Origin: Planctomycetota bacterium
GTDB lineage: Bacteria; Planctomycetota; PLA2; JAEUHO01
Direction of reading: 5' to 3'
Assembly: GCA_965223505.1 (NCBI GenBank)
Contig: CBDCWP010000008.1
Coordinates: 32,001-96,000 of the forward strand
DNA: 64,000 bases
Shown: positions 9,776 through 13,681 of the stretch, piece after piece
Layout of the letters: each line of letters begins with the position of its first letter
Numbering within the stretch: position 1 is the first letter of the stretch
Program-made: the position numbers and the translations under genes
The notes under the pieces: generated by a model
What the model saw: only the letters and a program-made list of their open reading frames with translations
What the model was told of the DNA's origin: nothing
Databases searched by the model: none

Positions 9776-12700
9776 ATGCGGCGCGACGAGGGCTCCGGCG
9801 GCCACGATCCCGACCCGGCCCGCGATCCGTCCGCCGCAGTGACACCGGCCGTGCTCGACGAGCTCAAGGAACGACTCGCCGTCATCGCCGGCGACAGCGA
9901 CCTGAAGCCGGAGGCCCGCGCCCGCGGCATGGCCGCGGTCGAACGCGATCTGCTCGCCGCCCTGCCGCAGATCGGCAAGCTGGACCCCACCTTCGGCGGC
10001 ATCCAGGGCCACCCGACGCTCGCGGACACCAGCCACTGGCGCGATGCGGTCGAGTCCCGGGATCTGGCGGAGTCCGCCGACGCGATCGAGAGCCTCGTCG
10101 AGGACCTCGTCTCGGACGAGGTCACCCATTGGCGCCACCGCGCCGAGCGCGCCATCGACGCCGGCGACGCGAACGCGTGCTTCCGCAGCCTCGCCGACGC
10201 CCGTGTGCTCGAGCGCGAAGCCCTCGACCGCCGTCGCTCCCACACACGCATCGCGCGCATCACCGAGGGCCGCGCACCCGTGCGCGCGGCGATGGAGCAA
10301 GCGCTCGAACGCAAGCCCGCCAGCACCGGCCGCCTTCACGAGTGGGCCGTCGAGCTGCTCGACCGCGCCGACGTCGTGCTCACCAGCATCGATCATCTGC
10401 CGCCCGCCCGCGCGTCGGTGCACCTCGAGGTGATCGCCGAGGACATCGACTGGCACATCCACCACGTCGAGCGCAAGGGCAGCCGGCGTCGCTCGCGTCT
10501 GAAGCGCAAGCTCGCGCGCATTCGCAACGAGCTGCAGGAACGCGAGCTCCAGGGCAAGCTCGAAGCGCGCTACGGCGCGAAGCGCGTCGTACTGCTCGAG
10601 CGGATGATCCTCTGGCTCATCTTCTTCGTGCTCGCGGCGCTCACGGCGGAGCTGATGTTCGACCTCTCCGTCGACCTGCGCATTCGGCTCGCCATCGCCG
10701 ACACCTTTGCCTGCGTCGTCTTCCTGATGGAGTTCTTCCTCAAGCTCTCTCTCGTACGCGGCAAGGCGCGCTGGTTCGCACGGCACTTCATCGTCGACTT
10801 CCTGCCGTCGTTGCCCGTCGGCATCTTCGTGCTCGGTGAGCTCGGCGCCGACCCCTCGCGCGCCGGCCGCGCGCTACGCCTCCTGCGGCTGCCGAGACTG
10901 GCGCGCTACGTCCGATTCCTGTTGCCGCTGATTCGCATGGTGCGCGCGTTCGGGTTCCTCGCGCGCGGCATGGACCGCATGGTTCGCCGCTACGGCCATC
11001 TGCTCAATCGCAACATCGTGCTGTATCCGAACCGAGCCGAAAGGGCCCAGGCGGAACGCCAGCATCTGGGCCCGGTCGTGCGCGCCCGCCGCCTGCGCTC
11101 CGAGCTCAATGCAGAGTGGCGTGAGCTGCTTCGCTCCGCGCCCCGCGCGGAAAGGCCGCTGGTCGCGAGCACGCGCCTCGAGGCGCTTCGCTGGGCGCGC
11201 GAGCAGGGGCACACGGCCCGTGCGCACGACACGGCGCCGCCGCCGTCCGCGGTGCCCGACATTCCGGCGGAGGTCTTCCTCGCGACCCTCGCCGGCATGA
11301 ATCAGCAGCAGCTCGAAGCGGAGCTCGGGCCCGACTTCATCACCCGCGCCGCGCGCGCGATCCGTATCTTCTCGCTCCCGCCGATTCGCTGGTTTCCGAT
11401 CGTGCGCAGGTACGTGCCGCGACTCGTGCCGCGCATGTCGCCGGCCGACGTCGTCACCGCGGCGTGTCATCAGACGGCCAAGGAGTTCAAGCGTCACCAC
11501 GACCGCTGGTTCTGGTGCGCGGATCTCTACGGCACGGTCACGCCGTCCGAATTCGTCGATCGGATCGGCACGACGATGGTCAAGAGCTCCTTTCGGCCGG
11601 CGTACCGGCTGGTCGTGTTCGGCATCGTCTACCTGTTGCTGACGCTGGCGTTCAGCCAGTGGGTCCCGGAACGGCTCGATCCGGCGCACCTCGGACGCGA
11701 CCTCACGACGTTCGAGGTCATCTACAAGTTCTTCGAGACGGTCGTCGGCGGCACGCTGAAGCTGTTGGGCAGCATCTGCTTCATCATCCTCGCCATCGGG
11801 TGGTGGCTGCGGCGTGTGGCCGGGGAGGCGACGTTCTTCTACGAGGAGACCGCGAAGGCGCAGTTCCTCGCTCTCACCGAGACGTTCAAGGGGCGGCATC
11901 TCAGCCGCGACATTCGCACGCTGGATCGACGCATCCTCGATCCGGAGGACCGGCTGATCGGGAACGGCTCGGAGTCCGCACGCGCCGAGCGGCGCGCCGT
12001 GTTCGAGAGCGCGGTGCGGTCGTGGATGGTGGAGGCGCAGGTCGACTCGGCGCGCGGGGACGCGCTCGAAGCCATGGAGCGCGTGATCCTGCTCTACCGC
12101 GACAGCCTCGACGGCGCGTTGTTCGGCGACTCGGACACGCGCACGACGAGCCAACTGCTCGGCAACCCGGCGCTGCGCCAGCTGCGCGTCATGTCGAAGC
12201 GCATCTCGAAGAAGGAGCGCAAGGAGCTGCGCGCGCTCGACCTGGACCGGCAACGGCTCTCGATTCGCGGGCCGTACCTGTGGTTCAACTACATCTCGAA
12301 GGCGGTCGCGCAGGCGGCCGCGCGCCTCATCGTCGAGTACAACCGCCACGCGATTCCGCTCGCGGAGCTGCCGTTCGCATCCGAGGAGGCCAAGGAGCGC
12401 TACGAGCGCTGGGTTGCGTCCGGCAAGCAGCTTCCCGACGACGCCGAGCGCGAGCGCGCGATGCATCAGAACGCCGACTACGTGACGACGGCGTTCACCG
12501 CGCTCCACTTCCTCGACGACGACCCGCTGCGCGACCGGGAGATCGCCGACCGCTTCGGCCTGGCGGTGCTGCGCAACCTGCGCGAAGACCGGCACCTGCT
12601 GTTCCGCAAGATCTTCGGCACGTATCCGCTGCACACGCGTCCGAAGGAGCAGCGCGTGGTCAACCTGTTCCGCGTGTACCACAGCTGGTTCGCGGGCGGC

Positions 12701-13681
12701 CGCGCGTTCTTCCTGCCGCTACGCGTGATGTGGCGCGGCGTGAAGATGGTGGGCCGCTTCCTGCGCTGGCTCGGCCGGGCGGTGAGCGAGATCCGGCGTC
12801 CCAAGACGCGCCGTGGCTCCGACGTCGCCGCCGAGGCCGACTTCGCGACGGCGGTGCGCAAGATCGACCGCATGCGCGGCCCCGTCGTCTGGGCGTGTCT
12901 GTGGATGCGGGCGCGGTTCGACTGCGAGTACCTGGGCGTGCGCGTGCCGGGAAGCCGGCGGTGGGGGCTCGACGGGACGGGCGTGGAGAACGACCTGCGC
13001 TTCCTCGGCGCGGGCGAGGAAGAGGCGCGGCGCATCGAGGAAGAGCGTGAGCGCGCCGAGGCCGACATGCGCCGGTTCTCGCGAATGATCGACGACGGGC
13101 TCATGGAGGACGTCGCGCGCCACATCGGCGTCGCGCCGGATGCGCTGGGCGAGGAGCACGCGCGCGCGGCGGCGGCAGCCTATCGTGCCGACTTCCAGCA
13201 CGTGCGGCCGTTGCTTTCGTGCGAGACGATCCTCGAGGAGACGCGCGACGAGGCGCTCGAGCGGCCGACGCGTCACTTCATGTGGTTTCCGAAGCCGCTG
13301 CTGTGGATGCGTTTCCGGCGTTGGTGGGAGGTGCACGGCGACCCGGAGCGTCCCGAAGCGCGCAAGGCCATGTGGCGCGCGGTGCGGCACAACCACGGCG
13401 AGTCGGCGGTCGCGTTGCGCATCTGGACGCAGATGGGCCCGGCGCAGGCGCGCGCGCAGGGCGTCGAGGCGTTGGCGGAGCAGCTGCGTCATGCGGCGCG
13501 GTTGAGCGAGCAGCTCGTGACGCTGCGTGCGGTGCAGACGCTGTCGTTGATCGACCTGTTGAACTACCGCGAGCACGTGTACCGGTTGGGTGAGTACGAG
13601 GCATCGGGTGACGTGCCGGGGGAGTGGCTGACGCTCGACGAAGAGGACGATGCGAACGCCGAGATGACGGGCGTGGCGTAG
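9776..13681 (+). CDS. Large membrane protein with an ion-channel-type voltage-sensor (S1-S4) domain
   Basis: 1301-aa ORF with GC3-rich codons. S2 DTFACVVFLMEFFLKL, S3 FIVDFLPSLP, S4 RAGRALRLLRLPRLARYVR. Confidence 0.85.
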   Translation: MRRDEGSGGHDPDPARDPSAAVTPAVLDELKERLAVIAGDSDLKPEARARGMAAVERDLLAALPQIGKLDPTFGGIQGHPTLADTSHWRDAVESRDLAESADAIESLVEDLVSDEVTHWRHRAERAIDAGDANACFRSLADARVLEREALDRRRSHTRIARITEGRAPVRAAMEQALERKPASTGRLHEWAVELLDRADVVLTSIDHLPPARASVHLEVIAEDIDWHIHHVERKGSRRRSRLKRKLARIRNELQERELQGKLEARYGAKRVVLLERMILWLIFFVLAALTAELMFDLSVDLRIRLAIADTFACVVFLMEFFLKLSLVRGKARWFARHFIVDFLPSLPVGIFVLGELGADPSRAGRALRLLRLPRLARYVRFLLPLIRMVRAFGFLARGMDRMVRRYGHLLNRNIVLYPNRAERAQAERQHLGPVVRARRLRSELNAEWRELLRSAPRAERPLVASTRLEALRWAREQGHTARAHDTAPPPSAVPDIPAEVFLATLAGMNQQQLEAELGPDFITRAARAIRIFSLPPIRWFPIVRRYVPRLVPRMSPADVVTAACHQTAKEFKRHHDRWFWCADLYGTVTPSEFVDRIGTTMVKSSFRPAYRLVVFGIVYLLLTLAFSQWVPERLDPAHLGRDLTTFEVIYKFFETVVGGTLKLLGSICFIILAIGWWLRRVAGEATFFYEETAKAQFLALTETFKGRHLSRDIRTLDRRILDPEDRLIGNGSESARAERRAVFESAVRSWMVEAQVDSARGDALEAMERVILLYRDSLDGALFGDSDTRTTSQLLGNPALRQLRVMSKRISKKERKELRALDLDRQRLSIRGPYLWFNYISKAVAQAAARLIVEYNRHAIPLAELPFASEEAKERYERWVASGKQLPDDAERERAMHQNADYVTTAFTALHFLDDDPLRDREIADRFGLAVLRNLREDRHLLFRKIFGTYPLHTRPKEQRVVNLFRVYHSWFAGGRAFFLPLRVMWRGVKMVGRFLRWLGRAVSEIRRPKTRRGSDVAAEADFATAVRKIDRMRGPVVWACLWMRARFDCEYLGVRVPGSRRWGLDGTGVENDLRFLGAGEEEARRIEEERERAEADMRRFSRMIDDGLMEDVARHIGVAPDALGEEHARAAAAAYRADFQHVRPLLSCETILEETRDEALERPTRHFMWFPKPLLWMRFRRWWEVHGDPERPEARKAMWRAVRHNHGESAVALRIWTQMGPAQARAQGVEALAEQLRHAARLSEQLVTLRAVQTLSLIDLLNYREHVYRLGEYEASGDVPGEWLTLDEEDDANAEMTGVA

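Follow-up and report, generated by a model that had tools for sequence, protein, structure and literature searches.

The 1301-aa protein encoded at 9776..13681 (+) in the window, by which we mean the whole 64,000-nucleotide stretch of DNA analysed, contains a real voltage-sensor domain (VSD) with no canonical pore after it. This was the core claim of a preliminary description of this DNA, and it is borne out by conserved S4 arginines, by the lack of a full-length channel match, and by a model without S5-P-S6. We put at roughly one half the probability that this is an inner-membrane protein in which voltage is sensed by a canonical S1-S4 domain, no pore of its own is present, and the output passes through a cytoplasmic domain. 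All features described below lie on the + strand.

Gene and overall layout

The open reading frame at 9776-13681 exists as first described, with the ORF list and the translation in agreement. It begins with ATG, encodes 1301 aa plus stop, and has a coding-type GC content of 0.72/0.46/0.91 at codon positions 1/2/3; full-length relatives match the whole gene at 39-58% identity. We compared 216 full-length relatives (31-58% identity) and a closer set (n=33), and built one model of the membrane part (residues 240-760) and a second of residues 700-1301. The protein has a six-TM layout. The excess of Lys and Arg is +2.2 to +3.1 at the S2-S3, post-S4 and pre-TM5 segments and -1.1 to 0 across the three loops on the outer side; the topology is probably N-in. 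The N-terminal cytoplasmic region, residues 1-268 (9776..10579), shows weak conservation as far as about residue 240 (blocks at 0.14-0.42), and is followed by a conserved helix entering S1 (0.58 at 241-260; helix 241-266 in the model). The long helical N-terminus that had been proposed holds for the modelled part, which begins at residue 240 and is helical.

A voltage-sensor domain with conserved charges

The VSD occupies residues 270-392 (10583..10951), with S1 at 270-294, S2 at 303-325, S3 at 333-355 and S4 at 360-392. Pfam Ion_trans (PF00520) matches residues 275-392 (nt 10598-10951) through profile positions 5-122 of 241, which is the S1-S4 half only. The match has an E-value of 6.9e-5 and 22.6 bits in hmmscan, where the cut-off is 25 bits, and 26.6 bits in a six-frame genome search; at E up to 1, Pfam returned nothing further except one chance-level DUF. 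The elements originally placed at about 10600-10960 are all present, namely the S2 motif F316-x2-E319-F320-x2-K323, the S3 Asp (D341), and S4 arginines at every third residue from R362 to R380, and then R387 and R390; S4 carries seven to nine arginines.

The VSD fold carries conserved charges. Among the 216 relatives, position 319 is acidic in all 216, position 323 is basic in 215, D309 is retained in 214, and position 341 is D or E in 204, while the charge-transfer position 316 holds F in 171 relatives and L in 44. Conservation extends to the S4 arginines in both the 33 and the 216 relatives, with R390 kept in 214, R371 in 196, R368 in 193 and R377 in 183 of the larger set. The protein displays the S1-S4 fold of the voltage-gated ion channel superfamily and, in the alignment columns of both sets, its S4 ladder, S2/S3 counter-charges and charge-transfer Phe, and it lacks the S5-P-loop-S6 with selectivity filter right after S4. 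Judged from these columns, the voltage-sensing residues are under selection in the 216 full-length relatives at 31-58% identity.

This conservation bears on the idea that S1-S4 is a relic that merely anchors a cytoplasmic scaffold or enzyme, with no regulatory role for voltage. The VSD is all that ties the protein to an electrical function, and TRP channels contain VSD-like domains that have no voltage function. However, a relic would lose its charges, and here the Arg ladder, both S2 charges, the S3 acid, the outer D309 and the aromatic or hydrophobic plug position are kept in 216 sequences down to 31% identity, so that we consider a relic improbable.

We give still less weight to a VSD that itself conducts, through an Hv1-like proton path or an omega-type leak, with the remainder of the protein regulating it. 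Hv1 is a stand-alone VSD of about 270 aa that is itself the conduction path, with an acidic selectivity residue (Asp) in mid-S1 and a short Arg ladder. The protein resembles Hv1 in being a VSD protein without a separate pore domain. It differs in its 1301 aa, with more than 1000 additional residues, in its seven to nine S4 arginines, and in the absence of any acidic residue from S1 277-291 of the query, and it does not fall within the Hv1 class. All but one of the 216 relatives have F or L at the hydrophobic plug position 316, and the Arg ladder is complete, a combination that would argue for a sealed sensor rather than an Hv1-type conductor. Conduction by the VSD is therefore very unlikely, despite the precedent of Hv1 as a pore-less VSD able to conduct, as described in the portion of PMC5065317 available to us.

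The S4 extension and cytoplasmic linker

S4 continues into the cytoplasm as residues 393-420 (10952..11035; RAFGFLxRGxDRLxRRYGxLLNRN), which we propose as the coupling element. In the model, a single helix runs over 371-405. Conservation of block 401-420 is 0.63, R397 and D400 are each retained in at least 95% of the 216 sequences, and blocks 381-420, 581-620 and 661-700 rank among the most conserved of the protein (0.57-0.70). The extension leads into a helical cytoplasmic linker, residues 421-582 (11036..11521), whose model helices mostly have pLDDT 80-97 and which is covered by no family or fold match. In 196 of the 216 relatives, 200-219 residues lie between positions 405 and 609. The prediction of about 200 soluble residues after S4 followed by a TM pair is in line with the observed gap of ~215 residues and a hydrophobic pair at nt ~11600-11821.

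The TM5-TM6 hairpin and the missing canonical pore

By hydropathy, the pair lies at residues 606-632 and 652-682. TM5 follows the most conserved motif of the protein (D583-L-Y-G-T-V-T-P-S-Q-F-V-D-R-V-G-T), and the two together form residues 583-631 (11522..11668; block 581-600 conservation 0.70; hydropathy window 606-632), with D583 present in 216/216 sequences. TM6 and its conserved cytoplasmic continuation span residues 652-702 (11729..11881), identified by hydropathy and by conservation of G658, G665, C668, G675 and W677, of which G665, G675 and W677 each reach a conservation of at least 95%. One model helix over 645-702 pairs with 590-629 as a long hairpin. Between TM5 and TM6, the outer loop (residues 632-651; 11669..11728) is variable, with block conservation of 0.15-0.21, and contains no P-loop. 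The distance from G616 to G665 measures 38 residues in 124 of the 216 relatives and falls within 32-45 in 199; the longer loops are unconserved Ala/Pro/Gly-rich inserts, and the loop of the shortest members is only ~10 residues. Because the outer loop is so short and unconserved, there is no selectivity filter.

Consistent with what had first been noticed, the protein has no TVGYG filter and no S5-P-S6 directly after S4, the Pfam match stopping at 122/241 and the model of residues 240-760 showing no such unit. A faint echo of a pore helix and S6 had also been suggested between the two TMs (TTFEVIYKFFETVVGG), and this did not hold up: the segment sits in the least conserved stretch (0.15-0.21), query residues 632-643 are an insertion missing from 27-30 of 33 relatives, and an hhalign comparison of TM5-6 with the Kv pore has a probability of 4.

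The hairpin nonetheless invites another interpretation, in which the protein is a non-canonical voltage-gated channel whose TM5-TM6 hairpins, as positional S5/S6, line a path without a P-loop in an oligomer gated by the VSD and cytoplasmic domains. The order and topology are those of six-TM channels, TM6 is conserved on one helical face with small residues and an invariant G675, and the closest single-sequence PDB matches are HCN channels. The best of these, HCN1 (E 0.0085), matches over S3-S4, and both proteins have a long, highly charged S4; the likeness is confined to S3-S4, and the pore, C-linker and CNBD of HCN channels are absent here. Relatives are named 'ion transporter' in source annotations, which reflects transfer from the Pfam half-match only. 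It counts against our preferred effector reading that six TM and the small-residue TM6 face (G658, G665, C668, G675) are equally expected of a degenerate or non-canonical channel. Against such a channel stand the short and unconserved outer loop, a variable outer half of TM5, the ~215 residues separating S4 from TM5, the hhalign result, and VIA matches to the hairpin that include no pore domains. Prediction of a homotetramer from four copies of hairpin residues 575-720 scored 0.00 and weighs neither way. On balance, we regard a channel of this kind as unlikely.

A search for a full-length match to a characterised channel family found none in Pfam or NCBIfam. In Kv channels (KvAP, Kv2.1) the VSD corresponds to the S1-S4 half of PF00520, the part matched here, whereas the 1301-aa protein has no S4-S5 linker, P-loop or selectivity filter and has ~1150 further residues unrelated to any channel. 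The same genome encodes a separate canonical Kv channel with TVGYG, and the 1301-aa protein is therefore not the cell's ordinary voltage-gated channel.

An all-alpha C-terminal domain

The C-terminal cytoplasmic domain, residues 700-1301 (11873..13678), is all-alpha, and no known fold was detected in it. The ~620 residues after TM6 had been described as mostly soluble, which stands with a qualification for helix 977-1003 (12704..12784), an amphipathic, poorly conserved helix that is moderately hydrophobic across relatives. Its family-mean hydropathy peaks at 1.41 over 978-996, with a median per-sequence maximum of 1.48 (5-95% range 0.87-2.22), and on the Eisenberg scale the mean H is 0.49 and muH 0.33. 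This helix may act as an anchor in the inner leaflet or be buried in the core.

The same helix enters a further alternative, a cryptic downstream pore in an eight-TM protein, in which 833-858 and 977-1003 would be S5-like and S6-like and the conserved segment lying between them, Y-V-T-T-A-F-T-A-L-H-F-L-D-D-D-P, would form a pore helix and acidic filter. Family-mean hydropathy peaks at exactly 833-858 (1.0) and 977-1003. Moreover, in a VIA-align comparison with 48,161 chains, 9 of the 50 rows listed are S5-P-S6 domains, from CatSper (two entries), Kir6.2, NavRh, NaK-NavSulP, a Nav1.7 chimera, CavSp1, Slo2.2 and TRPM2; they all fall on model residues 132-341 (protein ~831-1040) and align over 74-92 residues at an rmsd of 2.5-5.0. 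In a second look, 30 of 50 listed rows were TRPC, TRPM or TPC pore domains over the same range. This recurrent weak likeness of residues 833-1033 to S5-P-S6 domains is left unexplained by the effector reading and counts against it, though we hold a cryptic pore to be quite improbable.

The domain also contains an invariant basic/acidic cluster, R1028-K1029-x2-R1032-x-R1034 ... R1045 ... D1049 (12857..12922), in which R1028, R1032 and D1049 occur in all 216 sequences, R1045 in 215, K1029 in 213 and R1034 in 210. Together, R939, R944, R960, R1028, K1029, R1032, R1045, D1049 and D1073 suggest that an anionic ligand or substrate is met close to the inner face of the membrane; such a ligand, like any enzymatic activity of the C-terminal domain, would be putative. 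We discarded a CX5R phosphatase motif at C1041, as C is not the commonest residue there (A in 75 and S in 48 of 216).

Structural searches gave no firmer identity. Neither model (240-760; 700-1301) had a Foldseek match in the PDB at E up to 0.001. A terpene-synthase fold, which accounts for 9 Foldseek rows listed for the C-terminal model, was dismissed at E 0.4-1.6 and TM 0.07-0.18, with none among the 50 VIA-align rows listed. The ESM Atlas gave no usable match for residues 700-1301; the whole protein scored at best 0.79, under the 0.9 mark, against a Planctomycetota Ion_trans cluster. PADLOC and NCBIfam gave no matches. The effector is thus defined only negatively, because no enzymatic or ligand-binding fold or motif was found in the cytoplasmic parts by Pfam, NCBIfam, Foldseek, VIA-align, the ESM Atlas or PADLOC.

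A possible voltage-controlled effector

In the mechanism that we propose, S4, with its seven to nine arginines, would move in the membrane field and act through the conserved cytoplasmic helix 393-420 on a large cytoplasmic assembly. Its motion would reach this assembly because S4 runs unbroken into helix 393-420, a coupling route that we infer. Three parts would make up the assembly: the 600-residue all-alpha domain, the helical linker, and TM5-TM6, a long stalk hairpin whose juxtamembrane segments are strongly conserved. The output would be an altered activity or binding state of the C-terminal domain. The odds appear about even that the logic is that of a voltage-controlled effector, by analogy with voltage-sensing phosphatases (VSPs) or SLC9C1, with a different effector module. 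The fuller proposal, a bacterial voltage-controlled enzyme or signal transducer of new fold in which the S4 sensor acts through the S4 extension and TM stalk hairpin on the activity of the 600-residue domain, is more tentative.

The PTEN-like phosphatase and C2 domain of the VSPs (Ci-VSP / TPTE) were not detected by Pfam in the query or the 33 relatives, and the bacterial protein adds a TM hairpin, a 260-aa N-terminus and a 600-aa all-alpha domain. In SLC9C1, a long S4 reaching the cytoplasm serves as the coupling element, and the modelled helix 371-405 would give the protein a similarly long S4. Unlike SLC9C1, it has no Na+/H+ exchanger domain or cyclic-nucleotide-binding domain (Pfam, NCBIfam) and only two TM beside the VSD. 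In the available part of PMC10620092, this sperm Na+/H+ exchanger, in which a VSD regulates a non-channel module, is the only known VSD-regulated transporter.

A full-text literature search found no paper on the family of the 1301-aa protein, and the VSDs coupled to a non-pore output that it yielded were few and eukaryotic (VSP, Hv1, SLC9C1). The accessible portion of a 2025 review (PMC13661669) mentions bacteria and prokaryotes only for sodium and potassium channels. A large and conserved family in bacteria with every voltage-sensing residue kept and a cytoplasmic machine in place of the pore would widen the voltage-controlled processes known in bacteria and give a new system for studies of electromechanical coupling, and a VSD with soluble output would be a natural scaffold for bioelectric signalling and sensor engineering. 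The protein may convert membrane voltage into a biochemical output with no ions flowing. If so, it would be a prokaryotic counterpart of the VSPs with a wholly different output, Planctomycetota would couple energetic state to biochemistry without ion flux, and the 600-residue output domain would be unrelated to any solved structure.

Family and genomic context

Residues 400-1301 gave 463 matches against 1.84 billion representatives. Among the 150 listed, full-length matches are 1183-1648 aa, with alignments starting at their residue 298-619. The VSD and C-terminal module are constantly paired: the S1-S4 part of Ion_trans is detected in 30 of the 33 closer relatives (E up to 0.05), where no other Pfam family recurs, and in 23 of 25 distant full-length representatives. 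Several genomes assembled as a single contig carry the gene, and so does record CP043547.1. A stand-alone C-terminal domain was considered and rejected, as the 33 shorter matches lie on short contigs or are split gene calls (24 on contigs <5 kb, 6 on 8.8-11.2 kb and 3 on >470 kb). One of the three on contigs >470 kb, P0143, is probably a split call because it lies on a 478,515 bp contig and a tblastn full-length match also lies on a 478,515 bp contig.

Even the most widely shared neighbouring gene occurs at no more than 10 of 47 loci, and the lack of a conserved neighbour that would hint at function counts against the effector reading. In mean-field DCA (318-384 columns, 216 sequences), gap and indel artefacts prevailed and the pairs obtained were implausible, and the result was set aside. 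Four relatives contain a single in-frame TGA 0-10 codons from the end of the sequence retrieved for each, which we rejected as selenocysteine; in the two that could be aligned, it corresponds to query residues 1278-1279 and is an ordinary stop. Shared neighbours (SelA, SelD-like, NYN, ABC) occur in one and the same small set of loci, to which the window belongs. Some relatives' loci are labelled Verrucomicrobia or Ectothiorhodospiraceae.

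The voltage sensor

The gene at window 9776-13681 (+) is an open reading frame of 1301 codons with an ATG start, and its GC content by codon position (0.72/0.46/0.91) has the pattern usual for genuine genes of this 68% GC genome. The preliminary description had read its product as a voltage sensor uncoupled from a canonical channel pore, and our analysis confirms that observation. The S2 motif it named (F316-L-M-E319-F320-F-L-K323), the S3 aspartate (D341) and the S4 arginines (362, 365, 368, 371, 374, 377 and 380, then 387 and 390) are all present, and its S1-S4 and transmembrane-pair coordinates are consistent with the residue positions of S1 (270-294), S2 (303-325), S3 (333-355), S4 (360-392) and the TM5-TM6 pair. 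We take F316, E319 and D341 to be the charge-transfer centre familiar from Kv channels.

Pfam Ion_trans matches residues 275-392 with profile positions 5-122 of 241, which is the first half of the profile only (E 6.9e-5; 22.6 bits, where the cut-off is 25); a six-frame genome search scored 26.6 bits. Searches of the protein against NCBIfam and PADLOC gave no match. With the single sequence, the PDB returned weak S3-S4 matches only, the best to HCN1 (E 0.0085), and 12 of the 14 were HCN channels. With the family profile, the 60 matches listed of 89 were voltage-gated channels only, aligned at profile positions 267-399 only and led by Kv2.1 (E 1.2e-5). The same genome encodes an ordinary Kv channel of 276 aa, with six TM helices and the TVGYG filter (L002:1408-2238 (-), a locus on contig C43 of the source genome, G000), and hhalign paired family columns 262-410 with its sensor over 109 columns (probability 93.2, E 2.9e-7).

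Conservation was assessed across an alignment of 216 full-length relatives, of which 130 share at least 38% identity with the query and 86 share less. Position 319 in S2 is acidic in all 216 and position 323 basic in 215, the outer acidic D309 is kept in 214 and R336, before S3, in 209, and the S3 acidic position 341 is D or E in 204, while the charge-transfer position 316 is F in 171 and L in 44. The S4 counts are lower bounds, since fast alignment introduced gaps into that stretch: at least 116 of 216 for R362, 155 for R365, 193 for R368, 196 for R371, 174 for R374, 183 for R377, 143 for R380, 166 for R387 and 214 for R390. The profile matches and this alignment show a genuine voltage sensor on which selection acts. 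Two membrane-embedded cysteines are also conserved, C313 in S2 (window 10712-10714; 213 of 216 relatives) and C668 in TM6 (window 11777-11779; 28 of 33 relatives).

The TM5-TM6 hairpin

In the structure model, S4 is a single unbroken helix (371-405) that enters the cytoplasm, beyond which lie a helical region and a very long antiparallel hairpin (590-629 / 645-702) with hydrophobic cores at 606-632 and 652-682. On the inner side, net K+R amounts to +2.2 for the S2-S3 loop and to +3.1 both behind S4 and ahead of TM5; the three outer loops have -1.1, -0.2 and 0.0. A predicted N-in, six-TM topology agrees with these counts. Within the protein, conservation is lowest in the TM5-TM6 loop (block values of 0.15-0.21, compared with 0.55-0.70 in its flanks), and residues 632-643 of the query are an insertion missing from 27-30 of 33 relatives. 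For 124 of the 216 relatives the span from G616 to G665 measures 38 residues, and for 199 it falls within 32-45; the few long loops are unrelated inserts of low complexity. In the shortest relatives about 10 residues lie outside the membrane, too few for a pore helix and filter. Comparison of 575-710 by hhalign with S5-P-S6 of the same-genome Kv family, a single Kv clade, gave a probability of 4. No canonical pore follows the sensor. The 276-aa Kv channel itself carries a Cys-rich C-terminal tail (CPQC...CKTC), and some of its homologues bear the zinc-ribbon Pfam family PF13248 in precomputed annotation.

The cytoplasmic domain

With the C-terminal cytoplasmic part (700-1301) as query, no known fold was detected; its 602 residues can mask single-domain matches, and our claim is therefore limited to that detection and does not extend to a new fold. 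D583, R1028, R1032 and D1049 are invariant in the 216 sequences, R1045, W836 and G928 are kept in 215, N856, R939 and R960 in 214, K1029, R944, N963 and D1073 in 213, and R1251 in 212. The most conserved blocks are 581-620 (before and into TM5), 661-700 (TM6 and after), 781-800, 821-840, 901-920, 941-980, 1021-1060 and 1241-1260, so that it is the cytoplasmic and juxtamembrane side, rather than the outer one, that is constrained.

Residues 833-1033 recurrently show a weak likeness in structure to S5-P-S6 pore domains. When hydropathy is averaged over the family, the two long helices found here stand out as secondary peaks (1.0 for 835-853 and 1.41 for 978-996). Helix 977-1003 is hydrophobic though its sequence is poorly conserved, with a per-sequence hydropathy maximum of 1.48 at the median and 2.2 at the 95th percentile, and with mean H 0.49 and muH 0.33 on the Eisenberg scale. 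A displaced, cryptic pore domain, in which helices 833-858 and 977-1003 would be the S5/S6-like pair and the segment between them a pore helix and acidic filter, is kept as an improbable alternative, against which several results speak. Helix 833-858 has a mean H of 0.37 and retains charges, with R or K at position 850 in 149 of 216 sequences and D or E at 854 in 206, and the 117 residues between the helices have a K+R density like that of cytoplasmic parts (0.16 per residue, compared with 0.08-0.10 in outer loops). Moreover, net charge is +2.5 immediately before helix 977, the acidic D914, D915 and D916 are kept in just 139, 83 and 156 of 216 sequences, and hhalign of the region against the Kv pore gave a probability of 0.1. 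Helix 977-1003 may serve as an anchor in the inner leaflet or lie buried in the core.

Proposed mechanism

The best-supported reading is that the protein is a voltage-controlled cytoplasmic effector, in which membrane voltage read by the S1-S4 sensor would control the cytoplasmic effector domain. We predict this because the sensor is sealed and fully charged, S4 runs on into the cytoplasm as a conserved helix, the juxtamembrane stalk segments that flank the TM5-TM6 hairpin are strongly conserved, the sensor is invariably paired with a large and conserved cytoplasmic domain in which many Arg, Lys and Asp residues are invariant, and the outer face is variable. The earlier interpretation is supported in part: the lack of a pore in the canonical sense stands, and the protein may act as an enzyme, a scaffold or a non-canonical channel. 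Coupling of a voltage-sensor domain to a non-pore output is a kind of arrangement already known, and Ci-VSP and SLC9C1 follow the same logic. The S4 helix described here resembles the long S4 of SLC9C1. Full-text literature searches found no paper on this protein family. The passages of a 2025 review (PMC13661669) returned by term search mention bacteria and prokaryotes solely where sodium or potassium channels are discussed.

Family distribution and genomic neighbourhood

By word-indexed search, 193 relatives were identified among 8000 candidates; the 120 that were listed share 39-58% identity, are mostly 1180-1390 aa long, and carry source names such as 'ion transporter' or 'hypothetical protein', all from Planctomycetota. 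Residues 400-1301, without the sensor, were searched exhaustively by HMMER against 1.84 billion representatives, which returned 463 proteins at E ≤0.001, 370 at 1e-10 and 277 at 1e-30. In the full-length proteins (1183-1648 aa) among the 150 listed of these 463, the match begins at residue 298-619, which leaves space for the N-terminus and sensor. Pfam detects the S1-S4 half of Ion_trans in 30 of the 33 closer relatives, among which no second family recurs, and in 25 of the 30 distant representatives tested (23 of 25 with at least 1200 aa, 2 of 5 shorter). The 150 listed representatives and 33 shorter proteins gave no evidence of a C-terminal module without a sensor. The shorter proteins lie on contigs below 5 kb (24), of 8.8-11.2 kb (6) and above 470 kb (3). 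One from the last group, P0143, is probably a split gene call, since its 478,515-bp contig has the same length as that of L061, a relative's locus with a full-length tblastn match. Some long-read MAGs have the gene called as shorter pieces (L061, record CAVSWR010000042.1; protein P0143), probably a frameshift artefact.

Within a phylum sample of 401 genomes, 73 have a match, mostly at one place per genome, corresponding to 57 of 287 genera and 35 of 243 high-quality genomes; the window's genome holds one copy. Among 79 loci from species-representative genomes, all MAGs bar one complete genome, 72 are labelled as Planctomycetota lineages, one Verrucomicrobia, one Ectothiorhodospiraceae and five 'bacterium' only.

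Across the 47 loci of at least 14 kb, window included, each neighbouring family is present in 10 at most, which suggests that the sensor gene works with no conserved partner encoded alongside. Upstream lie SelA (L-seryl-tRNA selenium transferase; E 3.5e-130; window 4335-6251, +) and a probable SelD-like gene of the AIR-synthase type (6372-7337, +), which are syntenic with the sensor gene in just 9-10 of the 47 loci. Two coding-looking ORFs divergent from the sensor gene (7318-8748 and 8773-9636, both -; GC3 0.82 and 0.85) have no Pfam match. Downstream, a protein with an NYN domain is followed by an ABC ATPase, an ABC-2 permease and proteins of the ABC_transp_aux/DUF7088 and DUF4340 families (14422-15753 and 15941-20998, +), a set that looks like a gliding-motility-type ABC cluster. 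The shared SelA, SelD-like, NYN and ABC transporter neighbours are confined to the same small set of loci, the window among them. Elsewhere in the window, 35504-40942 (-) is an open frame of 1813 codons with a coding-type GC3 of 0.89.
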